DNA of 64,000 nt. It comes from Enoplolaimus lenunculus (taxonomy: Eukaryota). This document shows positions 7,288 to 32,264 of this stretch, one piece after another. The notes beneath the pieces were generated by a model. It was given only the letters and a program-made list of their open reading frames with translations. It was not told the origin of the DNA and did no database searches. The stretch lies in NCBI GenBank assembly GCA_030248215.1, contig JASANG010000440.1:372001-436000 (forward strand), given 5' to 3'. Each line of letters opens with the position of its first letter. The first letter of the stretch is position 1. A program made the translations under genes and the position numbers.

Positions 7288-7498
7288 AAACGGTGCAGAT
7301 TCAATTGAAAACCTGTTTCGTCGCTCAGGAAATGCCAGCTCCCAACCCACACCCCCAGGTCTATTAAATGCAAACTGAACCTACTATCCTCGCCCTGCCC
7401 TGCTCCGGCCTGAACAATCATCCATGGATAACGAATATTGGATCACGATTTAACTGCAGTACGCAGAATTATACCTGTAAACACTATAATGCATCAAA

Positions 7499-7504
7499 AA
7501 TAAA
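7499..7504 (+). terminator. Candidate polyadenylation signal AATAAA of the upstream myosin gene (second candidate at 7724-7729)
   Basis: AATAAA ~210 nt after the stop codon at 7287. Confidence 0.45.
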
Positions 7505-8399: not shown

Positions 8400-8608
8400 C
8401 GCCAATGTAAAGAACAGTGGCGGAACAGTATTATAAGCATATTCCTAAGCCTAAGCCTAAGCCTAAGCCTAAGCGTAAAGAATGAGTTTATTCTTAAGCA
8501 TACGCCTAAGCGTAAGCATAAGCCAAGCAAAAAATAGTCTAAAGCTTAAGCTTACTCTATTCTAGGCTCAGAGAAAAACGTCCGCCCCTGATCTTTAATA
8601 CATGGGCC
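8400..8608 (+). mobile_element. Family A MITE with 8-bp TSD CAATTGAA
   Basis: TSD at 8392-8399 and 8609-8616, ~27-bp TIRs, internal GCCTAA repeats. Confidence 0.85.
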
Positions 8609-10752
8609 CAATTGAAAATAGTTTGGTTTAAAACGTATGAATTCTCATTGGTTGATTGTAAAAATCGTTAAGATACTATACACGTTTCCCATTGGTTTGA
8701 GTTGCTCTGAAACGTACAGTTTCGAGCATTTTTAAAGGTTGTCTGCGACTGGTGCGATCTGCATCGTTTGTTGAAATCCAATGAAAGCAAAGTTGACAGT
8801 TGTGAAACATATTTTCTATCGTTTTGTTGCAAATAAAAACTGCTGACAATTATTCGGCATAAAATTTTATCAAAAGTACAGCGTCACCCTAAGAATATTG
8901 AAATTTCAAGACAATTTTTTCCTAAGAGACGGCATAGAATCGCAGGCTTACGAACGATTGACGTAAAATTCTTAAGCTACAGAATAAATCTCTAAATATT
9001 TTAAGAAACAAGTGTATTAAGTTTATACAAAATTGTCTTGAAAGTATTCATTGTATGGACAATTGCTGAAAAACAGATAAAATTAATATTTTAAAAAAGT
9101 TAAAACTTTCGGCTAAAAAGAACAGGGGCGGAACAGTACTATAAGTATTTTCTTAAAGCCTAAGCGTAAGCCTAGCCTAAGCGCAAGCGTAAGCATAAGC
9201 CTAACCCTAAACGTAAGAAAGAGTTTATTCCTAAGCCTGAGCCTAAGCGTGAGCATGAGTTTATTTCTAAGCCTTAAGCTAAACCTAAGCCAAGCAAAAA
9301 ATAGTCTAAAGCTTAAGCTTACTCTATTGTAGTGCCACAGAAAAACGTTCCGACTCTGATGATTACATGGGCCAAAATTTCAAACGAAAATAAATTATCA
9401 AACACAAATCCATACTCAACGTCTGTTTGCGTTCTATGGCCATAAATTAAACAAAAATTTGTCATTTTAAGAAGCTTCAACTTAAAAAAGTAAATATCTT
9501 TCAAGGCACTGAGTAAGTGGAGATATTTTGAAATTAATTCGTGTCGCTATTAAGACAAACACTTTTTACCGTTTGTCAAAACGCTATTTTGCTCAATACA
9601 AACGTTGTTTTCAAAACGAAAACAAAACGTTTGTGTTTTTAACACGATTTGTCATACATCTTTGAGCCTGAGTCTAATAACTTAAACTGGCACAAAAATC
9701 AGGGGCGGATCGTTTTTCGGCAAGACTGTAATAAGAATATTAAGCTTAAGCTTTAGACTAATTTATTGCTTAAGCTCAGCCTTAAGCTCTAAGGAATATA
9801 TGGTTATGCAGCGGTTACGGTCCGTTTCTATACATTGACTTTTAAAGACACAGCCTGTGTCGCACAGTTTTTCCCTTGCCATATTTCCCCAAGGGACAGG
9901 AAGGCTAAAACGTTGTTTGGCGGGGCGGGGGGAGCACAGTAACACCTCCCGGTGTTACGTACCCGATTGAAATGCTGTTAGTAATAACCCATGTTGCTTT
10001 TATGGCTGTGTCTATTTCCAAAGGAACAGAAATACAGTAGATTTAAGCTTTAGACTAATTTTACTCTCATGCTTATATTTAGGCTTTAGACTACGGCTTA
10101 TCCTGGCGTTTAATTATAGGCATAATAATGAATCAACAGAAACTATCAGCAAAGCGTTCGAGTTTTACTGTAACAAATAAATTGTGTTGTTTGCAGAAAA
10201 TATTTTAACTGAAAGCCTGCAAAACAGAACATTCTCGGTAAGTATTAATATAACTGCAGAAGCAATCAGCTTGCAGCGCAAAGTATTGCAACAAAGTTAC
10301 TAGAAATGCTGAGTGCAGTTTGTTTAGCAATTGCGATGCGTTTATTTTGTCCGTATTTATGCAATAAGTATAGTATTCTGCAGTCTAATTGCAATTTTGC
10401 ATTATTCAAGAGAATACATTTTAAGGATTGCGTTAAATTTAAAATATTGTATGAAGTAGGTATACTTAGATTGTAAATTTCGAAATGTTTCCAATTGGTT
10501 CAAGTTACAAAAGACTTAACTGGAAAATTCTTTATAGCCAAACTTCCAATTGTCAGCAGCGTTGAGTTCAATTTAATTTTGCAACCGAATATACGTTTAA
10601 CGGTAAAAAATATCGGTTCGTTTCCGTTATATAAAAATGCAGTTTTTTTCTCGTTATTTCTATCATCGCAGCAAAAACTTGCACGTGTGAATATTGACTT
10701 TAGTTTTAATGTTAGTTTCATTAGTAATTTTATGAGCTAAATAAGTAATATT

Positions 10753-13700
10753 ATGTCTTCTTCATTACCGACCACAGCAAAACTTGGTATATTTGAACCT
10801 AAAATTGCGGAACAGCGAATTAAAGTAAGGTTAAAGGAAACATTTTGGTGATTATTGTCAATTTTGTAGATAAACTTAAATTTCGTCACACCGGTTATTT
10901 GGTTCATAGAAGCTCCGGCTGCAAGCAAATTTACTCGCCAATGTATGGAACAGGGCCGGAACAGTGGTATAGACATATTCCTAAGCCTAAGCTTAAGCCT
11001 AAGCCTAAACCGTAAGGATGAGCGTATTAATAAGCCTAATCCGAAGTGCAAGCCTAAGCCTCAACAAAAAATTTAGTCTAAAGCATAACCTGACACTAGG
11101 TATTACAGCGCTACAGGAAAACTTTCCGGCCCTGTTCCATACATGGGCCAGTTAAACAGATGGAGCAAGCAGAGCTCATAAAGGACGGAATAGTTTTTGC
11201 AAGCGTAAGATTTTAAATATTTTAATGTTGCAAAACAATTTTCAGCTCATAGAAAAATATCGAAAGAAATGAGTCTTTTTAGTGTAAAATATTAGAAAAT
11301 GTAAGACATTTTAACGTTAGGCAGCGTAAACATTTGTGAATTTTTAATATTTCAGGAACTCGAACAATGCCTGGCCACCGAAGGTTCAAAGCGTCAAAAT
11401 GCCGAAGACCAAAATTCACGTCTTGTCGTTGAAAAGAATGATTTATTTCAACAACTCCAAGTCGAACGAGACAATGTGAACGAATGTGAAGAACGAACGG
11501 CGAAATTGATTGCTCAAAAATCAGATCTTGAAACTCAAGTTGGGGTACGGTAGCATGGAAGTCCATTGAAACTGAAAATCATAACGAAATCAGGAAATTT
11601 TACACAAAAGCACAGAACTCGAATCTTTATGCAAATCTGTCCAATCAAATACAGGGGAGTCGGTCAAATTTTGCCCTGAAACCAGTAAATTTTTTGAATT
11701 CGTCCCGGTGTAATGTTGCTACATTTACTTGCGAATGAAGTAAACAATGTAGCACGTGCACACTTTTCCCCGCATTTAAAGTCAAGGTTTACATTTAGGC
11801 TTAGGTTTAGGCTTAAATGTACAATCAGGTTGATGTGAAGAATTAATCAATCAATTTGACCTTGGGCCCGTATTCTCAAATGTGTGTAGCACCTATCACC
11901 AGCTGGTGATAGCTTTGGTAACTTTTGAACCAGTAAATGCTGAAAGTCAAATTTCAGCACATTTTTCACGTATAATTTGCCCTACTCATGTACCAATTTT
12001 GAGTTCAACAACTGCAATACTTAGTGAGTTTGAAAACCTGTTACTAATGATAGTTGCTATATGCATTTGAGAATATGGGCCTGGGAAAAACCTGAACCTA
12101 AATCTAGGGGCTATATTATCTAATGTGAACAGCATATATCATCAGTTCGGATTCGGTTTTCAATCTGACGAATGTCTGCAACTGTGGATGTCAAAATAGG
12201 CATAGAAGTAATACAAATCAAATGCGAACAATGTGCTCAATTTCGACCCTCGTCATCCGCTGGTTCGAAAGTTACAAAACATATCACCAAGTGATAAATT
12301 GCTCCATACATTTTGAGAATATATGCCCAGGTGTTTGTGTACATTGTGGGTGGAAAGTGTACAAGTGCCACCCACAACTGCAACATGGTTTCAGTTACAA
12401 TTTGTATTTTTAGGACATTACAGTAAGACTTACCGAGAGCGAGTCGCAATTGGTCGAGGCGGAAAAAGCCAAAAAATTGATGGATTATGAGCTGGACGCA
12501 GCACGGAAATCCGTCCAAGACCTTGAATTGACAGTTCGTAAGCAAGAAGCTGACAAACAAACGAAAGATCATCAGATCCGAACGCTACAAGACGAACTAC
12601 AACAACAAGATGTGGTATACTGTTTGAGTACTGTAGTGACCTGAATAAGGATTGCGTAATACTTTTATGTCCCGAACAACCTTTATAGCGCCGCCATAAG
12701 AAGAACAGAGAAAATAAGTGTTAAGAGCGTCTATTTTGAGTCCGAATCAATTAAAGTTTGGTAAACAATTTAATTTACAAAAAAGTTTTGTAAAGAATTT
12801 AATTACAAAAAGTATTAGATTTTCAAATGAAATTTGAAAAAATCAGACAATGTTGATATTGTGGATGCTGGTGTGATTAAACGATCCGATCGGTAAACAA
12901 GATCGCTTCTGTCAAAAGTTTCTTGTTACAGGGCTGAGATAAATGTTAGCTTTAAGGTCATAAATCTGTGCCGATATTTTCATGCCAGTCCCACGCTACG
13001 CTTGATTCGTCCTGCATATAAAGTGTCCGAACGACTTTTCGATACTCCAATGCGTCCGTCAAGCGATACCAAAATAGGCTACAATGTCAGCTGAGATAAC
13101 TTTAGCGAATAGCGGAAGGTTTAGTATCGGTTACCAGTTAGTGATAGCTTTTCATACTGTCAAACTCAACCGCTTACAGTTGACAAAATTGCCGCAGAAG
13201 TTAGACAAATCAAATGCAGAACTTTTCTGAATTTCTAACCTCACCGTTCACTGGGTCGAACGTTACAAGACATATCGCCAACTGATGATTGGTGTTACAT
13301 GAGAAAGCCCATGTAAAGATTAGGGGCGGAACGTTTTTCTGTGAACAAGAAATGACTAAGCTTAAAGCTTCAGACTATATTTTTTGCTTGGCTTAGGGTT
13401 AGGCTTAAGAATATGATCGTCCGTACGCTTAGGCTTAGGCTTAAGTTTAGGAATAAACTTTTTCTTACGCTCAGGTTTAGGCTTACGGTTATACATGGCT
13501 TACGAATATGCCTATAATGTAGTGCGGCCCCTGTTCTTTACATTGGCCGTTGAGAATAAGAGCCCTTGGTTTAACTTTCACGACGCTGTGTGTATTTGTA
13601 TTTATTTCAGATAATTTCAAAATTGAATAAAGAAAAGAAAACACTCGATGAACTCTATCGAAAACAACAGGACGACATTCAGTCGGAAGAAGATAAATAC

Positions 13701-16700
13701 AATCATTTGAGCAAAGTTAAAGCAAAGCTCGAACAGGCTCTTGACGAGGTAAGCAGTTGGGCCAATGTAAAGAAAAGGGGCGGAACAGTATTATAAGCAC
13801 ACTATCAAACCTATGACTAAGCCTAAGCCTAAGGCTAAGCGTAAGAATAAGCATATTCTAATGTCAAAGCCTACGCCTAAGCCTGAGCCTAGCAAAAATA
13901 GTGTAAAGCTTAAGTTTACTCTGTTGCAGTCCAACATGAACGAGTTCCGCCCCTGATCTTTACATGGGCCGGCAGTTCAAAGGTGTATTTACTATTTTTA
14001 TATTACTGTATATTTCAGGGAGTTGGTTTTAACTCAGAACGAGTTGAATCCACTCAGAAGCCTGAGCTCTGAATTAGATCTTCTTAGGACACAGAAATCT
14101 GAATTGATTGAACTCATTCTGAGTTACTTAATCAGCTCACCCGGAATTAAATCATCTCAGAGTGAGTTTCGTGTTCACTGTTGTTACTCATAAATAACCA
14201 GAAATAACTAATTGTCTCTCTCTGAGTTGCACTTCATAGGAGATTACAGCGAGCACATATGCAAATTATTCGTCTGTAGTATTTAGTGCGTAGTATTTTA
14301 CATGATCAAAGTCGGTTAACAATTACCATTGAACCTTTCACACTTGTACCCCAATTAAGATGACTCTAATTAGGATTTAGAGACTCTACCCGCTTACGGA
14401 CTCTTATTAGGGATTCTGACACCTACTGATTGGGACTCAAAATCGGGAGCCGCCTCTTTTTACCCCCGTCTTATTCGGGTCACTCCTGTAATTGCAATCA
14501 CTGCTGTTTTGGTGGCAAAGCCTTGAGAATGACCAAATTGATGATGAGGCGACTTGTAGGATTAGGAATTGAGTCCATGAACGAATGATTTTGAGTTCAT
14601 TTGAGCTGGAAGACGCGTTTGAGCGAGAAAAGCGAGCTAGGCAAGAAATCGATAAACAGAAACGAAAAATTGAAGGGGAACTCAAAATAGCGCACGAAGC
14701 GTCTGGAGAACAGGCTCGCGAGCGAGTTGAGATCGAAAATAGTCTTCGAAAGTAAGTTTGCGGGTTGCGCTATACTTTTGTTGACGTGCGGCGCTGTCCG
14801 GCGCCGTCCGTATCCGTACGAGACGTCCGTCACCGTCCATCACCGTGCGGTATCGTACGCAAATATCTCACGAACGATAACGTATGGTGACAAATGGTGA
14901 CGGACGGCGTCGGACGTGACGCAAACCTTATTTAGATCAAAATCGCAAGTACAAAGCAACAGAATTTTGGTTCGAGAGCAGTGCCGCGGTTGGAGCATTC
15001 AAGACCCATAAATTTTCAATTCGGCCTCAGTCCAGGAATAAAACACCAATGCGCAATCCATAATGGGTAAAGAGGGAATTAACGAGTGAAAACTTCTTTG
15101 AAACGCACAAAATCATGAAAGACAAGGCCCATAATTTCAGGGATACCAGCGTTTTTCTGTGGGACTGCAATAGAGTAAGCTTACACTTTAAACTTTTTGC
15201 ATAGGCTTAGGCTTAGGCTTTAAGTATAAGCTCATTTTACGCTTAGGCTTAGGCTTAGGCCTAGGTTTTTGCTTAGGAATACGTCTATACTACTGTTCCG
15301 CCTCTGTTCTTTACATTGGTCAAAGACAGTATTGGCAAAATTTTAGTTGATACATTTGGTGGAAATTTGAAATTGTGCTGTCAAAGAATTTATTCGGATA
15401 TAAACAAAAATGGTGTCTGAATGTTGCATTGAAGTATTATCGTTAACCGGTGAATAGTTGCTATACTCATTTGAGAATGAATATACTCGGAAATTTGATG
15501 ACGGAAAAATTTAAAAATTGCAGAAAAGACACAGAACTGCAAGCTGCCGCTGCGCAACTCGAAAATGAACAAAGTCTCGTTGTAAAATTGCAAAAACAAT
15601 TAAAAGATCAACAGACACGAATGCAAGGATATGAAGAAGAAATTGAAGCAGAACGTCAAAATCGACAAAAAGTAACCGAGTGAAAGCAGGGTACAACCGG
15701 ATGTCTGTTACCGGATCTGGCAAAATTTGTTTGGCCTTTGGTTCCGGCGCCTCGATTTTATTAGTTCCGGTTTCACTTTGCTAACTACTGAATACAGTTT
15801 TAGATTCAAGGGTTTCAGGTTAAATTTTGTTAAATTGCTTATTCAGTTTTGAACTTGGTAAATCAAATTGAGTCTCTTCAAAATAGGCTCTACGGGACTA
15901 CACAAACTGAGTTCAATTCGACTCCACCAGAGTCAAATTCTGCTCACTTAGTCGCACGTTTGACTATGGCGAAGTCTCAATTGAATCAATTTGTGTAGTT
16001 CCGTAGAGCCTATTTCGGAAAGAGTCAATTTGACTTGCCATTTTTGCAGTGAATTCTGTGCACTATACTTCGACTTTTTTGCTTGCTTTACAAATATTTG
16101 GGTTTGAAATTTTGTATCGCGGAACCAGCAGTTGGGCTCATGTATAGAACAGGGCCGGAACAGAACCTAGGATAAGCATATTCCTAAAACTAAGCCTAAG
16201 CCTAAGCCTAAACAAAAAATTAGTCTAAAGCTTAAACTGACTCTATCATAGCCCCTCCGGAAAACGATCCGGCCCCGATCTATACATTGGCCAGTAGTTG
16301 CACATGCTTGCTGACGTGGGTCAAAAATGAGTTCAATTATGCTAAAAGTGGGAATGTTTTTGAAAACATTTTGGAAATATGTTATGTCATAGGCTGAAAA
16401 GTATCGCGGTGAGCTTCAAAACGAACTCGAAGACTTAGCCGAGCGTTTAGATGAAATTGGTGGCGCAAGCGCAGCGCAACAAGAACTCAACAGAAAACGT
16501 GAGACCGAACTCGCCAGACTGAGACGTGATTTAGACGAGGTAAAAGTCTACTTATGATGTTCAATCTTGAGGCTGCAGAGTTCATTCCACTTTAAATCCA
16601 GTAAATCGGAAATTTTTAAATTAACCCTTTCTCACCTGAATATTTTCAATTTGATCAGAAATCTAATTTCAAGCTAACAAACATGACGAATGAAATGGGA

Positions 16701-19700
16701 GGCGTTTATCACCACCACTAAGCCATACGAGCGGAACTCTGGAGTTCGAAGTGGCTCTCGACGACTTGTGCTGATTTTGTACTGCGTATACGCGTAGTAA
16801 TTGCAAACCGCTGCGCACTGTTAAGGCTTAAATTGCATCAAGCCGTATTCACACGTGCAAGTTTTTGCTGCGAGAACTCGCAGCTGCCACTCGCACTTGC
16901 AAGTTTTGTCAAAAATCCCGTTCGAAAAACTTGCAGCTGCAAATAATTCATTAAAATCACAGCTAGCAATTTAGTTCACATGTGTTAATAAACATGCAAT
17001 TTCAATGACTTTATTGCTGCCGCTTTCTCATTGGCTGATGAAAAATGCAATTTCTGCGTGCAATTTCCTGTTGCAAGTACTCGCAACAAAAACATGCACG
17101 TGTGAATAAGGCTTTAATTTAGTAATCGCAGCAAAAATTGCAATTTTAGAGTGCAATAAGTCACGAGGCACAATGCGATACGTTACGTAAGAAGCATCAA
17201 GAAGCTGTCGCCGAACTGTCAGAACAAATGGACCAATTGCAAAAGCAAAAAGCAAAGTAACCGTTATTTCTCGAAAGTATTTATTCAACGCAAATATTTA
17301 CATCACTGCTGTCTTGTTTAGCGGCTAACGCTAAGTTTTCAAATAACCCAAACTATGGTGTATAGACGAACTAGATCGCTTTCACAGCGGTTGATGAACT
17401 TTCACACGGCGGTGTGTTTGGTGCGGCCATAACCCCCAATGGCCGGCGGGGTCTGAAAACGGTCAGCCGTTTTGAAACAAATTCAATCTGAAAAACGCCA
17501 CATTGAAAAAAATGGACTTTTTTGATAATTTTATATACAAAAATGCGTCTGGTTTCTCGCTCGTTTTATTCGCACTGACTTTCAATTGATTTGGAAATTT
17601 AATTGATTTTCATTGATTTGTTTTCGAAACGTTTCATCAAGTCGGTATTCATGCTTTGACGACAGTGTTTCGCAATTTATGCAACTGCCACAGTAGCATG
17701 TGTGAACCATGAATTTTTAGGAGGGGTCTGATACAGACCACCCCTCACCTCCCAGTAAGTTACCAGGAGTAAGCATGATATTGTGGATGTTGCAGTACAT
17801 ATATCACACGTTCATTTCTAAGCCATAATCCTACCGAGTTGTTAGCGATAAGAGCTAAAATTGTGTGCTTTAAAGCTGTAACATGTTTCGTGTTTTCAAA
17901 ATAGTTGCGTCGATTTTAATATTTGTTCTTTGTGATTTTATTTTCTTTATTTTTTGTTATTTTTTGTTTTGTTTCTTATTTCAGAATTGAAAAAGACAAA
18001 TTGACAGCGGAACGCGAATGTGACGAACTGCGAACGACACTGGATTCCGAAAGCAAATCAAAAGCGAATCACGAACGGCTCTCGAAACAACTTGAAACAC
18101 AAGTGGCCGATTTACAAAACAAGGTAAACTGGTTGATTTTATTCACAGTAAAGACTACACTGCAAAAAATGGTGAGTCAAATTGACTATCTTCGAAATAG
18201 GCTTTTCGGTCTTACAAAAATTGAGCCAAAATTCGACTTTGACACAGTCAAATTCGATTCGCTGAGTCGCACGTTTTACTTTAGCAGAGTCGAATTTGAC
18301 TCAGTTTGTGTAGTCCCGAAAAGCGGATTTTGAGAGAGTCAATTTCACTCACCATTTTGTGCAATGTACCCATTTTTAGCCTGCCTCTGCTTTCGCTCGC
18401 TATAAGCTTTCCAGACCACCCCCCTGATGAACCAAACATAATTTAGATGTTTGATGAATCCATCTGAATATGAACAGCAGACCAAGTGAGACCTTCTAAG
18501 TCGCTAAAGGTAACTTGCCTCAAAACTAAATTCCACCCTGGTAAAAATAAATTTTACGCTACGTTCATGTTACCTAAGGGAAGTTTGAAGGGTCAGCCTC
18601 TGTTATTGAAATTTTTATGCAGGGGTATTTTAGACACGGTTTCAGTTACAAGAGACCCCCGTTTTCGAAATTTTTACAAAACGTTAACCCTTGTTCCCAA
18701 ATGCTGACTGTATGCATGAATGATGCGGTCACACTTCTAATCTTCAGCGCAAAATCGCTGAAAAGAAAATCATTGCGAGAACAGATTAATTGAATAATTC
18801 ACAACATTTCTATTGAAAAGTTACTTTATTTATTTACAGCTGGACGAACATTCGCGTCAAATAGTCGATTTGACCACAGTCAAAATTCGACTGACAAGCG
18901 AAAACGGTGATCTTGGCAAACAGCTTGAAGAAGCTGAAGCTCAAATTACCGGCCTTGGAAGGCAAAAGGCGACGCTGACGGCCCAATTGGACGAAATTAA
19001 CCGGACGCTCGAAGATGAATCCCGGGTACGATGCCATTTTGATGGCTGAAACAAAGATCGAACTCATCATTAATCGGATTAAGTGGCGAATAGAAACGGA
19101 ACTCGGCCAAGACAAGGCGCATCCACAGGGATCAAAACCATAATTTTGTATTATGATTTTGCATTAAAAATTGCCGTTGACGTCGCAGACTTGTTTCGCT
19201 GAAGAGGTTTTGGCCCAGCATTTTTGTAGAGCATCCCAAGACTTTACGGCCGGGTACCCGGGGCCAATTGCCTTCAAGACGTACTCTCGTGCAAGGTATC
19301 AACCAGGCGTGCAGAAGTATAACGACAGGTGGTAGCTATGTGGGATCCGATACGCGATATATAATGATAAAAAAATTGCAAGCGAATCGAGCGAGAACCT
19401 AAATCAGCTTGAACTTAATGCTTAACCTGAATTGCGTCGAAGGCTCAAAATTTCTGAAAACCGGATTTGTTTTAACGGTGGTCCTTAATACCCGGGGGGG
19501 GGGGGTTAATAGTTATGGTTACGGCAGAATACCCGGGGGGGGGGGGTTAATAGTTGTGGTTACGCCAGCATTAATGGATTAGAGTTTGTTTCGGTACAAC
19601 CCTAAAATTAAGATTAATATAAAACGGTTAATTAAATTTAGTTTTTAAAATAAATAATTCTGTTGCTTTTAAGGAAAGACAAAGTTTACTGTCGCAACTA

Positions 19701-22700
19701 CGAGCATCACAAGTTGAATGTGACAGCTTACACGAACAACTTGAAGATGAATTTGAATCAAAGTCTGAATTGCAACGCGCGTTGTCTCGAGCGAACGCAG
19801 ATGTGCAACAGTGGCGAGCGCGATACGAAACAGAAGGCATCGCTAAAGCTGAAGAACTTGAAGAACACAAGTAAGTGCGATTTCTACCCTTTTCCGCATG
19901 AATATTTTTTATTTCATCTGAGATCAAAGTCCAATATTCTTAACCCTTTTTCACATGAATATTTGCCATTTCACATGAGATGTAATTTCAAGGTGAGATT
20001 CGAACCCCAGTCTCACGGGTGGGAGGCGTTTACGAAGACCATTGAGCTATAGCAGCTTGACGCTCGAGCCCGAGGGGCTCTCACGTCTTGTGGAGATTTT
20101 GCTCTACGCATATATGTTACAATTGTTAAACACTGCTCACAGTGTGTGTATTGCTCGTATATTATTGTATTTAGTTGCTCATAGTATACTCTAGGAACGA
20201 AAGGGTTAAACGAATATAACTGTGAGCGATCCCCACCGCTAATCCCTAAACGGTAAAGACATAACCGGGTAATGACATACCCGTAGACTTAGGTTATTTC
20301 GCACAAGAGATTCACTCAACCTTAAAAACAGGTTTCCTCTCTGGGAGGAAAACCTAGAAATATATAAAAGAGAAAACCTTAATATATATCAGGATAAAAA
20401 CTGGTTTAATATCCAATTTTGCATGAGCAAAATAACAAGTATTTAGCTCGTTATTGAAAGATACTGGTTCTGAATTCCATAGGAAGGTTTATGTCAGTTC
20501 TGATTTTAATTCAATGATGATATCATGTTTTTCTTTTGTGGTGATAATCTCCTGGAGTTAAGAATGAACTTAGATAACATAGAGTTTCTTAGTTTGTTTT
20601 GATGCTAAGTCACAACTAGTTTCAATTAGTTATTTCTAACTTAGTTTTTATTTAGTTTTCAACTATTATTGTTGAAAACTAATCGTATCCTGGTATTAGT
20701 AAGTTGCTTACTTTGTGTTATAATTCGTTTCGTATTATTACTTACATTACTTGTTATTAAAGCTTAACCCTAGTTCTGTTTATTAGCGAGTTCGGCGGGC
20801 TTCTGAGTCTTAAATCGGAGATCGAAACCCCTGTTAAGGCTGGAATTGGATGAACTCGCCCAGTCCTCTAACAATCCTATTACTCTAACCCATGTCTACT
20901 AAGATATTCCTAGTTTACAATAACATCTGTCAACAATTAGCGAAAGGTGTTTTAAATGAACTAAGCACGGTAGATATGGGTTTTAAAATGTACGCAACGG
21001 GCAAATCAAGTACGAAAAATGTACTAAGTTTTGAAATAAAACATTTGCCGGTTCAAAACGTATCAGACCAATTGTCAACCTGCGATAGTTGCTACACACA
21101 TTTGAGAATACTGGACGTTTTTTGAAGCGTAAATTTTAATTCGAGATTTTTGAACTCAATGCGTTTATTATCAATGCTGGACTAAAACTCGTGAAGTCAT
21201 TTAAGGGGGGCGAAACGGCTCTTTGAACTGCACAGTGGTGTTAGTCGGACCAAATATTTTTAAATTATTTGCTAAAAAGTCAGATGGTCCGGATATTAGC
21301 TTAGAAAATAACAAACATTTATTAAGACATTTTTCACGATTCGGAAAACCCTGGCGGCCAAGAGACAAACTCAAACAATCGAGGCAAATCAGCAGTGACC
21401 CAATCAGATATTAAAACCAAAACCTGACCACTGATACAATGAACTAATTTTATTAACCGGCTGTAAACATTGCAACTTTTTTATTAACCGCTTGTAAACA
21501 AAAATTATAGCTGGAACGATGCCCAAATTACGTATGCTGAGCGTTCGAGATTTATTAAATCATATATGTGTAATATTTTTGTTTATTTCAGACGTAAACA
21601 ACACGCTAAAATTAGCGAACTACAGGAGCAACTCGAGTCTGCTCAAGCGCGTATTGGTTCAATTGAAAAAAATCGACTTCGAATCCAGGGTGAACTTGAC
21701 GATGCTCACGTTGAAACTGAACGGGTATTTTAATGTATTCTTGTCTTTTAAACGCAAATATACTGCAATATTGCAATTTTGCAATTTTTGAAAAAAACTA
21801 AATTGCAGCATGAGTATATGCTAATCGCAGTTGACAACGCTACGTATGGTACTTGTTTGTCAATTGTACATCTTTGCTTGCTAAGACTTAGACCAAAGCC
21901 ACTGGTATTACCTAAGCCTTTAGTTAGAAATAACTCTAACGCTTAACAGTAAAATGAAGGGAAACTGTACAAGAACCAAATGTCAACACTGGAACAGCGG
22001 GATCCAGGGGTAAAACACGGTTACTCACTGAAAGACCTGCAGAATTTTTATTCAAAATCCCCAGGGTCGAAGCTAAAATTTCGTATCGAAACGGAACCAA
22101 CTCCAAAGGAAACCTTTACCTTTTACTCCTACTCAAATTTTGATGTTTTGTATGGAGGTATAAGGGTCCATTTTGCAAGCGTTTCTGCTATGAATTTTAT
22201 GAGAGCATTTACCCTTAGAAACCGGTTGATGGTCGTGTGAAACCCCTGGTAAGAAACGAAATATTCATTTCTGTTTTTGAAAGACAACAAAAATTAATGA
22301 TTTTAAGGCAAACAACTACGCTCAACAGTTGGAAAAGAAACAAAAAGGATTCGATAAAATAATTGAAGAATGGAAACGGAAATGCGATGAATGCGCTGCC
22401 GAACTGGAAGGATCCCAACGCGAAAATCGATCCATGTCCACTGAAGTATAGTTAAAAACGGATGTCCGCATAGCGGTCAACTTGTTGTACTATCTACACT
22501 GTAAATTTCAGTGAGTTGATTTTAACTCACGTTGAGTTGAATCACTCAGTCTGAGTCAACTAACCCAGAGTCAAAACAATTCAGAGTTAGAAACAACTCA
22601 ACTCTCAGAGTGAGTTAATGTTTACTGATATCGACTCAGAAATAACTTACTCGCTAGCTGAATTGATTAATCAACTCATCGGAATTTACAGTGTACTGCT

Positions 22701-25700
22701 TGGCCCGTGTTAATTATACACACCTTCCCACTGTGTGACTGGGAGAGTTTGCCAAGTTTAAGCTTAGGGTGAAGATTAGGCTTAAGTTCACGCTTAGGCT
22801 TAGGCGTAAACTTTGGGTTTGGCTTAGAATTATGTTTATGCTTACAATCAGCAAACAGACGACTCTGGTTAGCAAGGACTCACCGCGTTGCTATGATTAA
22901 TTCCCTGGTGTAACCGGATATTAATTTAGCGGATACTGAGACCAGATCCGGTTGGCGAATTTTTTAACGGAACTGGATGTTTAGCGGATACCATACAGCG
23001 TCTGGTTAAAGCATTTGGTTCGGGCAATAGATTACATATGTTTACTGAATTACATATTAGCTTGAATATTTCATTTTTACAACCGCGAATCACAAAACCT
23101 GAACGTCTCAGCTTGACCGGCCAATGTAAAGAACAGGGGCGGAACACTATGATAAGCATATTCCTAAGCCTAAGCCTATGCCTAAGCCAAGCAAAAAAAT
23201 TAGTTTAAAGCTTAAGCTTACTCTATTGCAGTGGCACAGAAAAACGTTCGGCTCCTGATCTTTACATGGGCCGCTTGACCAAAGAATGCAGTCGCAGCAA
23301 AATGAATCGCAGCAAAATGATAAAGACACTGATTCGTATAAAAGAAGTCTTTTCAAGTTCGGGACACCGCCGTAGATATCTGGTATCCCGTTGGTTTATG
23401 CCGGATACCGTAACCAGATCCGAATATTCGGTCGTATCCTGTAAATACCTCAGTCTGTTTCGAAATTACAAATATTTTCAATTAAAAATTTATTCCGTCA
23501 TTTTGCTTGCATTCAAGATGTGACCACGAAACAGGATATAAAAAGTATACTATTCTGATTTGAAATAAGACCTCAATTGCTATAACTTAACTTAAGCCGC
23601 ATTCACACGTGCAAGTTTTTGCAGCAAATATTTGCACGTGCAACTTGCATGTGCAATTTTGGAGACAAAGCAGCTTTGAAGTTCTTGCAGCTACAAATTA
23701 TTCACATGGAATTCATGCTATTGAATTTAATTCGCACCTGTCAACCCAGTAGCAAGTCGCTTAAATTTCTTGCACCTGCAGTTTGATTGGTCGATCGGAA
23801 TGTTCCTTTAAAAATACTTGAAGCTGCATGTATTTCGTGCAAGTTGCAGCTACGAGTTCTCGCTGCAAAAACTTGCACGTGTGAATGGAGCTTTATTTAT
23901 AAACATTTGCGATATCACAAACGAAAGACGATCAGAGCCGCAAATGTTTCATCTTGTCTCTTTGTGTAAAACTCGATTCCTAAATGTATTCCTAATTTTA
24001 AATTTTCACTTTTTCAAACTAACGGTTTTTAGTAGTCTTATAAATTAATAGGATTTTAAAGATGGCTTGTAAAACGTTGCAGAAATGTAATCAATTTGAT
24101 TATTTTGTAGATATTCAAGTTAAAGAATGCCTACGACGAAGTAAACGAACAAGGCGAAGCATTGAGGCGAGAGAATAAAAACTTAACTCAGGAACTCAAA
24201 GACATCACGGATCAGCTCGGTGAAGGTAAAAACTGCAATGTATTTTGCAATAGGAATGCTAAATTTGTTATGGAACATCCACGTTATACTGCACGCGCTA
24301 CTCCAAAAAAATGTCTGGGTCTGAGTAACGCCCGACGTCGTTTTATCACACTCTATTACGAGACCACTATAAAGTCCGGTAGTCCCTAACGAGGACGTAA
24401 AAACATATTGCAATGTGTTCATATAGCATCGCAAACATACATAACAACAACACAAATACATATATACACTTTAGAAATTATATTTGTGAGTATCGACATC
24501 ACAGATAACGAAACATGACCAGAATTCGTAAATGGGTCACCCACGTAATACTGCGCGCATTACTGTAAAACGTTGCCTACCCTCCCAGTTTGGACCTGTG
24601 ATAAAAATCGATACGATGACAAGTGTGGTTGAAACCCATGAAGTACAACTTAACAATCGTGTAAAGCATTACATTATATTTTGGACGCTTTTCGTGTTTT
24701 AAACTGTTTACGTTTTGTAAGACGAGCAATTGTGAAATGAATAGCTAACATAGCTAAACGCTATTCAGTAAACGCTTTTTAACATTTGTCAAAACGCTAT
24801 TTTCTCATCAATAAAAGATCTTTTCTTCAAAACGCGAAATGTGTGCGTTTAGCGTTATTTATTCCATTATTTGGTGTTGTGTGTGTTTCGGGTGGCCGCA
24901 ACGTTCACGAACTACAAAAAGCGATTCGTCGAGTTGAACTTGAAAAAGATGAACTTCAATGTGCGTTGGACGAAGCTGAAGCGACACTCGAAAGCGAAGA
25001 GTCAAAGTTGCTCAGAGCTCAACTGGAAGTATCTCAAATTCGACAAGATATCGAGAAGCGATTGCACGAAAAAGAGGAAGAATTTGAAAATACAAGGTAT
25101 CCGGTAAAACTGGCCCTGGATGGGGGAAGTATATTAGCCCATTGACCGTTCTGCGCTGAAAATTTTGCGATTCAAAACGTTCAAACGTTCATCTAACAGT
25201 CACAATCAGTTTTTTATGCGAATATTTTCAACAAATGTGCATCTTAAAAATACCTTCAGCAGCGCAAGTGTTTAGCACAAGAATTGCTGTAGTCTACAGA
25301 GTAACAACAATCATTTGAAACATTTTTTTGTTGCAGAAAAAATCATCAACGAGCGTTAGAGTCAATGCAATCCAGTTTGGACGCAGAAGCACGCGGCCGT
25401 GCTGAAGCGGTTCGTTCAAAGAAGAAACTCGAATCTGACCTGAATGAGCTTGAAATCGCACTGGATCGGGCGAACAAAGCAAACGCGGAAGCGTCAAAGA
25501 GCATTCGTCGGCATCAAGAACAGATCAAAGAGTTACAGGTTAGTCAGTTTTTGGCCTGGTAAGTCAAAAAAACCTTATCCTTGGGGTCATGCGCTTCAGA
25601 AATCAAATCCTGGCTACGCTCGTTGCAATTCCTTTTTCTATTTTCAGATGCAACTCGATGATGAACAGCGAGCTCGGGAAGATCTTCGTGAACAATTTGC

Positions 25701-28700
25701 AATATCTGAGAAACGATGTCAACTGCTGCAAGCAGAAAAAGAAGAAGGTGTCATCAGCGTTGAACAGGTGACCGATAGAACATCCAGAGGGGAGTTGGAG
25801 GCGGGGTATATGCCCCCACTTTCAGAAATTTTTTTATGGTAAAATGGTGAGGTAGCTATCTTACAATTTTCGCCCAAAGAAAATTGGCGCATATACACCT
25901 TTACAGTAGAAATTGCGTTTCATAACTTTTGCTAAACCCGTTTCTTGTCAGAACTTTCTGTATCTGCCGATGCAGGTGTCTTCAAACTATTCAGCGTGTC
26001 ACGGGGGTATGTTACGTACGACAACTTTCCCCCATGGTTTCAATAGTTTACGTGCCACAGCACAAAAGGAAATTCTTGGGAAAATATTTTGAAAACTACT
26101 TGGAAGACGTGCCGTTTTTCCGCAAAACTCAAATAGCGTAAACATAAGCTTCGGATTGGTTTTAGCCTACGCTAAGTTGTACGGTTATCGTTACGTTGAG
26201 GCGTACGCTTACGTTTAGGTTTAGGAATATGCTTATACTACTGTTACGCCACTCAAAGTAACATTGGCAATAATCATAGTTACTGGCATATAAACCACAA
26301 TTGGACTGCGAAAGCTGCACAAAGAATGTGGACTGATTAAGCGGTTCGGAGTTGGGTCAAAAATGTCGAGCATTGATTGGGTAAAACCAGTAAAGAAACC
26401 CTCATCAGACATAAGCGAGTTGTTATAAACAGAATAAAGTTTTCCGAAGTACGCAAGTTTATGTGGATTCGGCATAAAATCTGTTGTTCAACGATAAATT
26501 GAAATGATTGCAGTTTGAATTTTAAGGCCGAACGAGGCCGTCGGCAAGCAGAATCGGACGCGAACGAAGCTCGTGAATTTGTAACTGAGCTGAACGCTCA
26601 AACGGTTACACTTAACGCTGCGAAACGAAAAGCTGAATCTGAGTTTCAATCGTTGCAGGTGAAAGCTGGAATATTTTAATGGTCTTAGAATTAAGTCCGC
26701 AACAAAGTTGTTATCTACTCTATTTTCGAGGAATTTTCGCTTCGTACGAACTAAAGCGCGAAGTCTGACGTTTGGACTCGAGTCAAAGGGCAGTATTTGG
26801 AACTCGAGTCAAAGTGCAGTATTTTGAACTCGAGTCAAAATGCAGCATTTTGAACTCGAGCCAAAGTGCAGTATTTTGAACTCGAGTCAAAGTTTAGTAT
26901 TTTGAACTCGAGACAAAATGCAGTATTTTATGCTCGAGTCAAAGTGCAGTATTTTGAACTCGAGTCAAAGTTCAGTATTTTGAACTCGAGTCAAAATGCA
27001 GCATTTTGAACTCGAGCCAAAGGGCAGTATTTTGAACTCGAGTCAAAATGCAGCATTTTGAACTCGAGCCAAAGGGCAGTATTTTGAACTCGAGACAAAA
27101 TGCAGTATTTTATGCTCGAGTCAAAGTGCAGTGTTTTGAACTCGAGTCAAAGTTCAGTATTTTAAGCTCGAGTCAAAGTGCTTTATTTTTTTCGAGTCAA
27201 AGTGCAGTATTTCGAACTCGAGACAAAATGCAGTATTTTAAGCTCGAGTCAAAGTGCAGTATTTCGAACTCGAGACAAAATGCAGTATTTTAAGCTCGAG
27301 TCAAAGTGCAGTATTTCGAACTCGAGACAAAATGCAGTATTTTAAGCTCGAGTCAAAGTGCAGTATTTTGAACTCAAGTCAAAGTGCAGTATTTTGAACT
27401 CGAGTCAAAGTGCAGTATTTGGAACTCGAGTCAAACTGCAGTATATATTTGAGTTAGGATTTTTGAAAAAATTTTGACCAAAATGTGCGTATATTATCGC
27501 CTTGAATATTTACATATTATTCCAAAACAGAATCATTTTGAAGAAGAACATTTTAGTTACAGATTTTTGGACGCGAGTATAGCGACAAAAACAAACAAAA
27601 CTGTACCCTTTAGAAGCTCTGTGAGGCTGTAGACATAGGGGCCAGGGATATTCAGCCCCTTGGAAAAATTTTGGCCCCCAAAAAAATTTTCAATCTTGTT
27701 TGTAAGTCATTGAAAAACCTTGCAATACTGCTCGTGAAAAATCTGTAGTCCCCATAGCAAAGTGAGCTTGCTACTGACCTCAGCGGTACACGAAGTATGT
27801 CAAAGTTTTTAATTTAATCATCCGTTCAAAGAATTTCAAAGGCATATCTCCCTGTATACCCACCGTTTCAAACGCCCATGACTAGAAACAACTGCTTTTA
27901 TTCTACAGTTGGAATTCGAAGATACCGTAACCGAACTGAAAGCGTCAGAAGAACGTGGACGTAAAGCTATGATCGATGCAGCGAGATTGTCCGAAGAACT
28001 ACGACAAGAACAGGATCACTCAGCAGTGGTCGATCGCGCACGGAAAGGCCTGGAGTCCCAAGTTAAAGTAACCGCAACATTTACTTGTCAAAGTGGTTGC
28101 AATACTTACAGCACAAAGTCTTAGAACAAATTCATTGTTTACTGTCGTAACTGGTATTTTTCTGATTGTTTCAGAACTGGACTCAGTGTAATAATGTGAG
28201 ACATGCTTGTCCGTTATTTATGCACATGCAAAATCGTGCAATGCACCGTATGTATGCTAGCTGGCAGCATATAGTCGACACATATAGTCGACGAAATATG
28301 CAGTTGGAGAGGCGGGCTGCGTGCGCGCTGGTAACAGCGTCTGCCTGATACGCAGATCGTCGCTAGTTCGAAACCACGCGTAGCCTGCTTTTCCAGCTGC
28401 TTAGTAAAAATGTCTGAAGTCCCGGTTGTTACCAAGACTGACACTCAGTATCAGATTTAATTTCTTATTTTTGGAGATAATTCAAAATTTTTATTTTATA
28501 ATTTTAGGAACTGCAATCTCGACTCGATGAAACTGAAGCCTCCACATTAAAAGGTGGCCGCAAAATGATACAGAAGCTTGAAACGAGGGTAAGCTGAATT
28601 ATTAACCAGACGCCATCAGCGTGTTGAACTGGTAGGTGTCAGCGACTTTTATACCATGGACACAAACAGCAAAAACGTCTGGTATATCCAATCAAACAGG

Positions 28701-31700
28701 TATTACGGAATACTGCAAAGAGTCCCTGACATTTAAGCCAAAGTCGTTCCAATCCCTTGTAGTATTCCCCCATTTTGCCTGCCGTTGTTAAGCCTAAGCC
28801 TAAACCTAAGCAAAAAAGTTAGTCTAAAGCTTAAACTGACTCTATTACAGAACCTACGGAAAACAATCCGACCCTATTCTATACATGGGCCATATATTTT
28901 TTTATGAATTTTTTTGGTTTTTTCGTTTTTTAACATTTTCCGTCACCCCTTCGGAAAAACAGAAACCAAGAACGAGAACACCCTGTTTTTCCGTTGGTTT
29001 TTTCTTTCGACCATCACTATTTGAAAACATGAGCAAACGATGCATTGCAGTAGATTATAATTTTTTAATTTACAGTCGTGTTTTGAAATTTCAGATACGA
29101 GATCTGGAAGCCGAACTCGAAGCGGAAACACGGCAGCATCAAGAAACCGGTAAATTGTTACGGAAAGCGGACCGGAAAGCAAAAGAGCTACAATTTCAGG
29201 TATCTGGTTTGCTTGGACGTTCTCTGGACCGTAGTGTACGCTTTTAAAGTTGCATCATTTAGCTCATAGAACTCAACGTCGGAAACGGTTAAAAACAGGA
29301 TTGTTCTGGTTCTGAAAATACGTCGGCTTATCATGAACTGGCAATAGATGCAACACACAGTTTATCGATCCTGTTGTAAATCTTTGTACTTCACTTGTAC
29401 AGCCTGATTTGGTCAGATTTGTGCCAATTCAATACAACACACGACCTCGACTACCGTAAGACCACTATGAAAAAGTTACCTACAGTATCCAAGTTATTCT
29501 TTCAATGCAAAAACCTTTATTTTTTTCAATTGTTTCAGTGCGAAGAAGATAAAAAGAACCAAGAACGGCAACAAGAGCTGGTCGACAAACTACAGACTAA
29601 AGTCAAAACGCACAAGCGACAGATTGAAGAAGCGGTATGTCTTCAAGTGTTCCTGTGTATTAATAAATTGGCCCATGTTACCCTAACCAGAGTATCACTG
29701 TATTTTCCTGGTTTTCGAATACAGTAAGCCTAAAGCATTAGACTATTTTTTGCTTAAGCCTATAACTGTTAAGGCTAAAAGGCTTACACCGAAACCTAAA
29801 TGAAAATAGTCTAAATCTTTAGGCTTAGACCTTGGCTCATAAGCTTATTTCTACGCTGAGGCTTAACGAAAAGTTTAGGCTTAGGCTTAGAAATATCCTT
29901 ATACTACTGTTACGCCCTTCAAACTCACATTTGCCGGAAATACTTTGTTTACAAAGTAAGCGGTGTCATACGGTAATAACCGGCCCATGTAAAGATCAGG
30001 GGCGGAACGTTTTTCTGCTCGACTAGAATAGAGTAAGCTTTAAGGTTTAGACTAATTTTTTGTCTGGCTTAGGCTTAGGCTCAGAAATGTGCTCATTCTT
30101 ACGCTAAGGCCTACGCTTAGGCTTAGGCTTAGGCTCAGAAATACGCTCATTCTTACGCTAAGGCCTACGCTTAGGCTTAGGCTTAGGCTCAGAAATACGC
30201 TCATTCTTACGCTAAGGCCTACGCTTAGGCTTAGGCTTAGGCTCAGAAATACGCTCATTCTTACGGTAAGGCCTACGCTTAGGATTAGGCTTAGGCTCAG
30301 AAATACGCTCATTCTTACGCTAAGGCCTACGCTTAGGCTTAGGCTTAGGCTCAGAAATATGCTCATTCTTACGCTAAGGCCTACGCTTAGGCTTAGGCTT
30401 AGGCTCAGAAATATGCTCATTCTTACGCTAAGGCCTACGCTTAGGCTTAGGCTTAGGCTCAGAAATACGCTCATTCTTACGCTAAGGCCTACGCTTAGGC
30501 TTAGGCTTAGGCTCAGAAATATGCTCATTCTTACGCTAAGGCCTACGCTTAGGCTTAGGCTTAGGCTCAGAAATACGCTCATTCTTACGCTAAGGCCTAC
30601 GCTTAGGCTTAGGCTTAGGCTTAGTAATATGCTTACTGTTCAAAACTCATAGCGTTTCCCCAACAAATATGTACTAATTTTAGGAATCTATCGCTGCCAC
30701 AAACGTCGCAAAAGTTCGCCAATTACAGCATCAAATCGACGACGCTGAAGAACGTGCAGAAATTGCAGAAAGTGCACTTGCAAAACTGCGATTACGCAAT
30801 AAAACGTCAGCCAATGCTGGCCAACTGTCAGTTTCTGCAACCGGATCCGCAAACCCAGTCATTTCCACGGTTAGTGATTATATTTTTCACAGGTATTGTC
30901 TGAAAAACCGCATACATACCACACTGCAAAAAATTGTGAGTCAAATTGACTCTCTCCGAAATAGGCTCTACGGGATTACACAAATTGAGTCAAATTAGAC
31001 TCCGCCAGAGTCAAATTCGACTCACTTAGTCGCACGTTTGACTCTGGCGGAGTCGAATTTGACTCAGTTTGTGTAGTCCTGTAGAGCCTATTTCAGAGGG
31101 AGTCAATTTGACTCACCATTTTTTGCCGTGCATACGCCATTCGCAGCCTTCCTCAGAGAATACATACCAAAGCACTGACCTTAGATCCCACAAGATTTTA
31201 GTCCTTTAAAATCAGTTCATCGCCTCACTCAAAAAAGTAATTTTGAATTTATTCAGAAAACTATTTTCTGTGGCAAATCTGAAAAGTTTTTTACTGATAT
31301 TTAAGACAATTTTTTTAAAAATAACTGGAAAACGTTTATTTTCAAACTTTGTTTCAAAACTTTTTTGAAAACTTTTCTGTTATAAACTGAAATAGTTTTC
31401 AAGTGCACCTTGCGAAGTATATTTCTTAAATGTAAGAAATTTTTTCATAAATATCAGAAATATTATTTTGAGTGATGCCGATATAGCAATTTACCAATGT
31501 CTTTGAATGCGCGCTGCATTTAACCATTGTTAATATTGTCGCAGCTTAGCTTCTGAAACTGTTCATAAAATAATCCTTGAGTTCGCCGTCCAATGTAAAA
31601 AACATGGGCAGAACAGTAGTATAAGCATATTCCTAAGCCTAAGCTTAAGCCAAACAAAAAATACTCTAAAACTTAAGCTTACTCTTTTCTAGTCCCACAG

Positions 31701-32264
31701 AAAAACGTTCCGCCCCTGATCTTTACACGGGCCAGTTCGCCAACCCATACAGTGATAACTTTATCAGCTTGTCATATAAGCACAACATTTTCTGTAATAC
31801 TCCAGAAATCCTACAGTTCGACGAACAACATTCATCACTGAGACAAATACAGCCGTGCTTGAGTCGTATTCTCAAATGTGTGTAGCACCTATCAGGATAC
31901 AACCGGACGTCTGCCTCCGGCTCCGGTATTTTTCACCTCCGGTTGCACCCTGGCACCTATCAACACTTGGTAATGCAAAATTTTATTTTTAGAACAAATG
32001 AGAGTTTAAAAAATAGCAAATTTTTGTGCAGTTTTTAATGTACGATTCTTTGCAAAAATTTTGCAATTGGTAACTGCAACAGTTTGTCACTTTGAAAGCC
32101 AACCGTAACTGGATTTTCAATATTGACTCTGCGGGCTGTTAATCTGCTAATGGCACAAGTTAAAAATACGTCTATTAAACATTTTGCAGCGTTCAATGTC
32201 TCATTTGAATACGTGGTTGAGTCAGTTTAACCGACCCGAAGCTGAAGACGATATTGAAGTCTAA
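10753..32264 (+). CDS. Headless myosin rod protein: 24-aa leader + complete S2/LMM coiled coil + tailpiece, ~1138 aa, paralog of the upstream myosin
   Basis: 24 phase-compatible exons: 10753-10824, 11356-11544, 12414-12614, 13611-13748, 14606-14751, 15524-15671, 16393-16539, 17150-17256, 17985-18123, 18840-19025, 19674-19870, 21592-21724, 22308-22445, 24111-24225, 24892-25096, 25337-25538, 25648-25767, 26527-26658, 27909-28067, 28508-28588, 29095-29199, 29539-29634, 30684-30869, 32190-32264 (TAA). Total 3417 nt with no internal stop. Myosin-rod motifs [52 protein letters not shown]. The first and last exons are assigned from splice sites and phase only, so they are less certain than the rod exons. 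Confidence 0.88.
16841..17113. mobile_element. MITE family C (~220-300 bp); copies at 23595-23892, 34451-34725, 42771-43056, 51488-51710
   Basis: TIRs AGCCGTATTCACACGTGCAAGTTTTTGC / GCAAAAACWTGCACGTGTGAATA.GGCT, often with TTA/TAA flanks. Confidence 0.75.
19944..20205 (+). mobile_element. piggyBac-like MITE family E, diverged copy
   Basis: TTAA|CCC...GGG|TTAA. Internal minus-strand tRNA-Gly(CCC)-like segment at ~19997-20053. Confidence 0.7.
22497..22693. mobile_element. CACTG-ended MITE (family F); related copies at ~48159-48356 and ~14010-14230
   Basis: TA|CACTGTAAATT...AATTTACAGTG|TA with internal GAGTT/AACTC motifs. Confidence 0.6.
23119..23272 (+). mobile_element. Family A MITE with exact 8-bp TSD GCTTGACC
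   Basis: TSD at 23111-23118 and 23273-23280. TIRs GGCCAATGTAAAGAACAGGGGCGGAAC / GTTCGGCTCCTGATCTTTACATGGGCC. Confidence 0.9.
26769..27443. repeat. 26-bp minisatellite (GAACTCGAGTCAAAGTGCAGTATTTT), ~26 copies, intronic
   Basis: Period 26 (e.g. 26826, 26852, 26878), with a CTCGAG core in nearly every unit. Confidence 0.95.
28315..28385 (+). pseudogene. tRNA-like relic with GAT anticodon inside a dispersed repeat (related copies ~47785-47980 +, ~62540-62720 -)
   Basis: Acceptor stem GGCTGCG/CGTAGCC, anticodon stem TCTGC/GCAGA with loop CTGATAC, GTTCGAAAC B-box. The T-stem is degenerate. Confidence 0.5.
29982..30640 (-). repeat. Family A MITE whose interior expanded into a 54-bp TTAGGC-rich minisatellite (~10 copies)
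   Basis: Starts with the GGCCCATGTAAAGATCAGGGGCGGAAC TIR. Unit CTTACGCTAAGGCCTACGCTTAGGCTTAGGCTTAGGCTCAGAAATACGCTCATT at ~30065-30625. Confidence 0.9.
30922..31130. mobile_element. Fold-back CACTG MITE (family D); copies at 18158-18366, 59948-60199, partial copies at ~15860-16050 and ~62085-62195
   Basis: Almost fully palindromic CACTGCAAAAAATKGTGAGTCAAATTGAC...GTCAATTTGACTCACCATTTTTTGCMGTG, with 2-bp flanking duplications (CA/CA, TA/TA) compatible with CMC-type elements. Confidence 0.8.
31588..31733 (+). mobile_element. Family A MITE with exact 8-bp TSD AGTTCGCC
   Basis: TSD at 31580-31587 and 31734-31741. Confidence 0.85.

Follow-up and report, generated by a model that had tools for sequence, protein, structure and literature searches.

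Myosin rods that lack a motor have been described from several animals. In excerpts of PMC3912159 (Kollmar and Hatje 2014), Lottia gigantea Mhc8 is described as a tail-only gene of its own within a tandem Mhc array; it has many expressed sequence tags (ESTs) and starts where catchin does. The same excerpts present the Drosophila myosin rod protein as a near full-length rod that the single Mhc gene yields by alternative transcription. Catchin/myorod polypeptides of 112 and 120 kDa are reported (excerpts of PMC4410989 and PMC3912159), catchin being ~260 residues shorter than the full-rod protein (excerpt of PMC3912159). Mussel myorod is a surface component of the filament; it forms co-filaments with myosin and, once phosphorylated, modulates the ATPase of myosin (excerpt of PMC4410989), and a transgenic motor-less rod in fly flight muscle gives thick filaments with a 14.5-nm repeat, the thick-to-thin ratio being kept (excerpt of PMC4212879). 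Here we describe a predicted headless rod gene from Enoplolaimus lenunculus, which lies behind a muscle myosin heavy chain (MHC)-type gene in a 64,000-nt stretch of assembly GCA_030248215.1 (contig JASANG010000440.1, positions 372,001–436,000, forward strand). This whole stretch is referred to as the window, and all coordinates below are window-based.

On balance, and with a slight lean in its favour, we read the locus as encoding a predicted stand-alone 131-kDa headless rod that would co-assemble into thick filaments. It is a real feature of the assembly, and as a stand-alone full-rod gene it is credible but unproven.

A full-length rod without a motor

The rod gene (10753–32264, plus strand) comprises 24 exons totalling 3417 nt, which encode 1138 residues and a stop, with no internal stop codon. 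All 23 donors are GT and 22 of the 23 acceptors are AG. A preliminary description of this DNA had called the gene an intact 24-exon open reading frame (ORF); the 1138 codons do run without a stop, while ‘intact’ has to be qualified, as one non-canonical acceptor is needed.

The rod protein aligns with complete muscle myosins from residue 15–20 to about residue 1100. The closest sequences are nematode muscle myosin-II heavy chains (P0017, P0134 from Trichostrongylus and P0141 from Ditylenchus), which are 55–57% identical, the best value being 57% to P0017 and P0018; against P0017 there are 3 gap columns over residues 20–1110. Homology sets in within exon 1, near codon 15–20, with approximately the first 10–17 rod residues absent, and exon 2 starts ~20 residues past the head–rod proline. 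The earlier statement that homology runs without gaps from the start of subfragment 2 (S2) to the tailpiece is therefore right as to the near absence of gaps and wrong as to the start. The sequence is free of proline from residue 17 to residue 1109, and its hydrophobic period (3.52) and charge periods (9.37 and 28.25) match those of P0017. The protein thus has what distinguishes a muscle myosin-II rod, namely a coiled coil of ~1090 residues with heptad and 28-residue charge repeats. The myosin tail family PF01576 was detected in three of the six rod-gene exons scanned and exceeded its curated cut-off in one, exon 16 (40 bits); in exon 2 the match covered PF01576 positions 27–75, below the cut-off. 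An ESM Atlas search returned generic myosin-tail clusters only.

Proximal S2 is encoded by exon 2 (11356–11544), whose first residue corresponds to MYH7 residue 858, and S2 continues in exon 3 (12414–12614). The rod then runs through exons 4 (13611–13748), 5 (14606–14751), 6 (15524–15671), 7 (16393–16539), 8 (17150–17256), 9 (17985–18123), 10 (18840–19025), 11 (19674–19870), 12 (21592–21724), 13 (22308–22445), 14 (24111–24225) and 15 (24892–25096), the last with a non-canonical GG acceptor at 24890–24891. Seven exons follow whose sizes recur in the neighbouring gene: exons 16 (25337–25538, 202 nt, as upstream exon 681–882), 17 (25648–25767, 120 nt), 18 (26527–26658, 132 nt), 19 (27909–28067, 159 nt), 20 (28508–28588, 81 nt), 21 (29095–29199, 105 nt) and 22 (29539–29634, 96 nt). 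Exon 20 holds a KGG region, equivalent to MYH7 1792–1818, which matches in sequence the MYH7(1777–1855) chimera structure 4XA6 and which we take to be skip 4. Exon 22, equivalent to MYH7 1855–1885, presumably overlaps the assembly-competence region or assembly domain. These matches agree with the first impression that the KGG skip and the C-terminal assembly region have been retained. The coiled coil ends and the non-helical tailpiece begins in exon 23 (30684–30869). The predicted last exon (32190–32264), a tentative choice, carries a divergent tailpiece and the stop, with the first AATAAA 3′ of it at ~32910. Compared with that of the neighbour, the predicted tailpiece is longer and dissimilar, with a tryptophan and an acidic end; reading through exon 23 would give an alternative 43-codon end.

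Absence of the head

The head is absent from the rod gene as assembled. A motif scan in six frames of the whole window revealed no P-loop or switch motifs, and no IQ sequence is present in the window. Searches of the window by tblastn with ten myosin heads and with a head hidden Markov model (HMM) gave noise only (best E 0.046, at 52.8 kb), the best E inside 7.3–11.3 kb being 3.3. Within the window, the arrangement expected of a striated-muscle myosin-II, a motor with P-loop and switches followed by IQ sequence, was not found.

The intergenic gap between the two genes (7288–10752, 3.5 kb) likewise holds no motor or IQ sequence. A head of 850 residues would need 2550 nt of pure coding sequence, or ~16 kb at the intron density of the rod gene (mean intron 787 nt), whereas the non-repeat sequence in 7520–10752 amounts to 2493 nt, so that there is no room for an 850-codon head even without introns. 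The motif scan, tblastn and the head HMM concur with the preliminary description that P-loop, switch and IQ exons are missing from the gap, and the non-repeat length with its view that a head of ~800 residues would not fit. Its account of the gap as ~3.5 kb holds for the length and fails for the content, said to be largely miniature inverted-repeat transposable elements (MITEs): 21% of 7288–10752 is repeated elsewhere in the window, a lower bound since repeats were counted within the window only, against 39% of the rod-gene introns. Four such repeats lie in the gap, at 8400–8613, 9117–9384, 9545–9618 and 9694–9837.

An AATAAA on the plus strand at 7499–7504, found by motif scan, probably serves the upstream gene as its poly(A) signal, with another at 7724. 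A TATA-like motif (10628–10634, plus strand) lies ~120 nt 5′ of the rod-gene ATG; this and the MEF2-like matches upstream are consensus matches only, and no CArG box or CAGCTG E-box was found upstream of the rod gene. A two-codon upstream ORF (10732–10740, plus strand) is closed by an in-frame TAA. At 10666–10705, 47 nt 5′ of the ATG, stands a solitary 40-nt terminal piece of a MITE, which contains CACGTG; full copies of this MITE family occur at ~16.85–17.1, 23.6–23.9, 34.45–34.72 and 51.5–51.7 kb. Intron 1 contains a MITE with a GCCTAA core and 32-nt inverted ends (10925–11154).

Relation to the neighbouring myosin gene

The last nine exons of the upstream gene lie in the window (681–882, 1206–1325, 1878–2009, 2157–2315, 3027–3107, 3491–3595, 4727–4822, 5527–5688 and 7228–7287, plus strand); its head is outside the window and is assumed. 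The seven consecutive exons named above have the same sizes in both genes, as reported initially, and the first of them is identical at 54 of 67 residues, which matches the 13 differences first counted. Over all seven, 205 of 298 residues are identical (69%). Across these 298 codons the non-synonymous divergence (dN) is 0.22 and the synonymous divergence (dS) ~3.1, which is saturated; such a pairwise ratio cannot place the selection before or after the loss of the head.

Phylogeny with MHCs and paramyosins, proposed at the outset as a check together with dN/dS, places the rod gene and the upstream myosin as sisters (support 96/98; in a second tree, 100 by the Shimodaira–Hasegawa-like approximate likelihood ratio test), outside the paramyosins. 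The pair falls within the nematode muscle-myosin clade (support 98/96; 100 in the second tree) with proteins of Plectus, Heterorhabditis, Mesorhabditis, Rhabditophanes and Caenorhabditis. In the tree that includes paramyosins, the window's myosins form the first branch of the nematode clade, and the data suggest a lineage far from the well-sampled nematode lineages. The window itself has nematode-type features, namely TTTCAG/TTTTAG acceptors, GCCTAA-core MITEs and, in the rod gene, a mean intron length of 787 nt. Branch lengths are 0.31 for the rod gene and 0.15 for its sister (0.26 against 0.15 in the second tree), and in relative-rate tests the rod gene was faster with all six outgroups, at p<0.05 in three. 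Differences within the pair are fewer at outgroup-invariant columns (28 of 146) than elsewhere (78 of 190). The rod gene itself departs from the invariant residue at 16 such columns, mostly by conservative replacement. Taken together, these comparisons show an old tandem duplicate under constraint, sister to the upstream myosin, in line with the original proposal of purifying selection.

The predicted first exon and the GG acceptor

The predicted first exon (10753–10824) comprises 24 codons and ends in a GTAAGG donor; its first 14–16 codons are non-homologous and the remainder is rod-like. The in-frame TAA at 10738–10740 lies 15 nt 5′ of the ATG at 10753, and both the short exon and the stop just upstream are seen in the sequence as first described. 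Stop-free GT donors in 7288–11310 were ranked by how closely their preceding codons resemble the residues that precede exon 2 in myosins. The donor at 10824 came first of 154, 137 and 123 when the last 6, 8 and 10 codons were compared, respectively, and 0.14–0.19% of donors window-wide score as high. On a donor matrix it ranks second of 219. Since the last 6–10 codons continue the coiled coil and rank first, exon 1 is supported as a real exon, and its 3′ end is very likely a remnant or continuation of the junction exon. A proposed remnant of the head–rod junction, consisting of the exon 1 proline and A-K-L, was rejected, being no better than shuffles.

Exon 15 is preceded by TTTCGG rather than TTTCAG (24886–24892). 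Three DNA runs of one study hold contigs of the stretch, and the best-matching run may be the window's own source; the contig matches are dominated by repeats, and all contig figures refer to the contigs listed. A second-sample contig has no differences from the window over 24784–25400, so the GG acceptor is not a base error. On a matrix built from the other rod-gene acceptors it scores 6.0, within the 3.8–13.7 of known sites. The in-frame AG alternatives, at 24853 (39 nt upstream, adding 13 residues) and 24922 (30 nt downstream, removing 10), score −2.2 and −12.8; both were rejected as far below the GG site and as interrupting the conserved coil, and skipping of exon 15 was rejected as it shifts the frame. 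Caenorhabditis elegans uses a GG acceptor in icd-2, and TTTCAA is used there after mutation (excerpt of PMC4484395). The TTTCGG acceptor is thus predicted to be usable, which we regard as likely.

A proposed stand-alone headless rod and its alternatives

In the favoured reading, the head exons would have been lost after duplication, with the break just past the head–rod proline and a nearby ATG becoming the start. The gene would be expressed from its own exon 1, with exon 15 spliced at the TTTCGG site. Two chains would form a parallel coiled coil of ~1070 residues, which at the coiled-coil rise of 0.1485 nm per residue would be ~160 nm long, and this coil would pack beside myosin on the paramyosin core, at the filament surface, via its charge repeat and C-terminal assembly region. 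There, the headless rod would fill lattice places without cross-bridges, lowering head density and altering stiffness or spacing in some muscle, a role suggested by analogy with proposals for myorod and the myosin rod protein. The chain may also pair with that of the upstream myosin, and such heterodimers would carry a single head.

Under neutrality, 194 nonsense changes are expected in the rod frame per unit divergence; if only these are counted, the frame stays free of stops with a probability of 0.14 at 1% divergence, which falls to 0.02 at 2%. In addition, an in-frame ATG before a stop is found at only 17% of random gap positions. The kept donor, ATG and open 1138-codon frame would be explained by exon 1 working as a first exon.

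Several results weigh against this reading. Codons 1–16 show no myosin homology in eight comparisons (shuffle p 0.32–0.66). In synonymous codon use they resemble the background (log-odds −2.6), 22% of background frames scoring as high as exon 1, and the same pattern would be expected at a newly formed breakpoint. Proximal S2 is unrelaxed, with 14 of 18 invariant columns kept (15 of 18 in P0017) and block identities of 0.94–1.16 of the nematode mean; an S2 as conserved as that of headed myosins also fits a rod that had, or still has, a head. No headless orthologues were found: three of 120 rod-query matches lacked a motor Pfam domain and all three look 5′-truncated, in a query that admitted proteins of up to 1778 residues and whose list is crowded by partial headed myosins, making it a weak orthologue test. 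Among 150 representatives, those of at least 750 residues without motor motifs are at most 41% identical and comprise paramyosins, fragments or distant predictions (lampreys, an acanthocephalan and P0382). A homologue search with exon 2 gave nothing (33 candidates), and one with exon 16 gave mostly arthropod myosins and no protein of the window. Among the contigs listed, none bridges 10692–10983, within which exon 1 lies. Two exonic variants stand among the 40 of 600 differences that were listed, and both replace a residue, albeit conservatively (E to D at 11433, D to N at 12609). Finally, the GG acceptor, one non-canonical site in 23, could be early decay.

Much of this evidence would suit a recent beheading, in which a complete paralogue lost its head through a break in the junction exon, leaving a young pseudogene whose signs of selection are older. 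In exon 1 the homology breaks off sharply near codon 15, with non-coding-like sequence before it; this, an S2 conserved as in headed myosins, an acceptor that has lost its AG, and two non-synonymous variants among those listed all fit such an account. It must, however, fit the whole history within ~1–2% neutral divergence of the deletion, given the 194 nonsense changes per unit divergence, whereas the samples' non-coding contigs already differ from the window by 1.4–2.7% (13/908, 12/599 and 23/849). It also leaves the in-frame ATG to chance at the 17% given above, no head remnant was found, and the longer rod-gene branch suggests a lasting change of constraint. We therefore regard a recent beheading as unlikely.

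Alternatively, motor exons upstream of the window might have two splice targets, the first rod or, when this and its poly(A) site are skipped, the phase-0 acceptor at 11356, so that a single motor would carry one or the other of two complete, mutually exclusive tails. The phase of exon 2, ~20 residues past the head–rod proline, would permit this, the seven equal-size exons make a matching donor likely in the first copy (outside the window), and the unrelaxed proximal S2 fits a rod that still carries heads. Such splicing would, however, need a skip of ~20–30 kb, ~23 exons and a poly(A) signal, as judged from the size of the second copy. It would also leave unexplained a rod-like ATG exon with a good donor (10753–10824) that has outlasted synonymous saturation, unless both routes are used. 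Within exon 1 the AG acceptors are weak, none ranking in the gap's top 20, and a proline and G-I-F occupy the place at which the coil of headed myosins starts. The arrangement with two exclusive tails seems distinctly improbable to us. A shade less probable again is a combined form in which one motor serves two 31%-divergent tandem rods in a mutually exclusive manner, while a headless form of the second rod is produced as well, starting at its small exon 1. If true, the locus would swap an entire filament-forming tail and also yield a headless filament component.

A misassembly, with head exons collapsed into the upstream copy or lost by a misjoin at a repeat, is harder still to sustain. Repeats are present in the gap and in intron 1, none of the contigs listed spans the stretch or bridges 10692–10983, and two of them stop at 10692. 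Yet the two copies are synonymously saturated, which makes collapse of a head unlikely; the window contains no N; and the pieces 7585–8430, 8663–9146, 9747–10692 and 10983–11890 are each present as contigs, the long X1 contigs having a depth of 21–43 with no sign of piling-up. A misjoin in intron 1 would make the rod likeness of exon 1 (first of 154) a matter of chance, and one further upstream would supply no head, since exon 1 is closed by the in-frame stop.

That the rod gene is the species' paramyosin, or a long paramyosin, is barely credible: both are headless myosin-rod homologues, but over the same 805 residues the rod protein is 31–36% identical to five paramyosin-type proteins against 47–61% to myosin rods, it has ~260–270 more N-terminal rod residues (alignments start at residue 279–286, about exon 6, for the paramyosin-type rows and at 15–20 for the rod protein), and the tree, with five paramyosin rows and no named nematode paramyosin among them, refutes the identity by grouping it with the upstream myosin outside the paramyosin clade.

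Other features of the window and other motor-less proteins

Downstream, a gene on the minus strand (~38100–63400) points towards the rod gene. It contains a C1 domain at 40885–41091 (PF00130) and, read by eye, an EF-hand-like exon at ~44170–44290; we take it to be RasGRP-like. One of its introns holds ~470 bp of interstitial, telomere-like GCCTAA repeat (43254–43724), a hexamer that is also the core of the window's commonest MITE. Tandem arrays were seen by eye at 36705–37935 (42-bp unit, ~29 copies), 26780–27440 (~22-bp unit, intron 18) and 30070–30620 (in a MITE of intron 22), and two with longer units occur in downstream-gene introns (47030–47710 and 50030–50470).

The motor-less proteins found in the searches deserve separate mention. 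Five predicted lamprey proteins from three species (P0249 and P0391–P0394; 1179–1242 residues) have a full rod and no motor motifs, P0249 having a unique N-terminus and an IQ-like junction; they may reflect a motor-less myosin gene or, alternatively, an artefact of annotation. Two motor-less divergent rods, P0274 from the acanthocephalan Pomphorhynchus laevis (1132 residues, 28% identity) and P0382 (1107 residues, 25% identity), do not group with the rod gene.

Comparison with known headless rods

No nematode case of a headless rod was found in the literature searched, most subscription journals being outside that search, and the main text of PMC5583752 contains no passage on headless or tail-only genes. 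The preliminary description knew of no such gene from nematodes, and none appeared in these searches; a separately encoded rod as such is not new, given the precedent of Lottia Mhc8, though this is shorter.

If expressed, the rod gene would be a case in which duplication followed by loss of the head gave rise, independently and within one lineage, to a headless thick-filament protein; paramyosin is usually assumed to have arisen in this way. This origin would be visible beside the parent gene, with the exon structure still matching. With a gene of its own, unlike the fly myosin rod protein or catchin, the headless rod could evolve and be silenced apart from myosin, which would make its filament role (head dilution, stiffness, spacing) testable. 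If expressed, the rod would also be a thick-filament component of which the searches gave no nematode example.

Among known systems, nematode muscle myosin-II heavy chains share the length, register and periodicities of the rod protein, which differs from them in having no SH3-like, motor, converter or IQ region and a divergent tailpiece. Paramyosin is also a stand-alone gene for a headless myosin-rod homologue, but it forms an ancient separate clade and lacks the first ~270 rod residues; the rows examined are ~850–930 residues long, in accord with the earlier remark that paramyosin is shorter and lacks S2. Catchin and myorod are headless rods at the filament surface, where the present protein is predicted to lie, but they are alternative Mhc products with a shorter rod and a long phosphorylated N-terminus, whereas here the unique part is only ~15 residues and the gene is separate. 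The Drosophila myosin rod protein, reportedly a thick-filament component by the title of the primary paper, is likewise a near-full rod with a non-myosin N-terminus in place of the motor and light-chain sites (here the predicted exon 1); its rod is shared with myosin, in contrast to the separate locus and own exon set described here, 69% identical to the neighbour. Lottia Mhc8 has its own locus in a tandem Mhc array and encodes a coiled-coil tail without motor exons, as does the rod gene as assembled. That gene is supported by ESTs and starts ~260 residues further in, whereas the rod gene, predicted from sequence, keeps nearly all of S2 behind a short new first exon in a nematode-type genome. 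The principle of a stand-alone tail gene is therefore not new, a shorter one being known in Lottia; the predicted rod gene combines the independence of Mhc8 with the full length of the rod.

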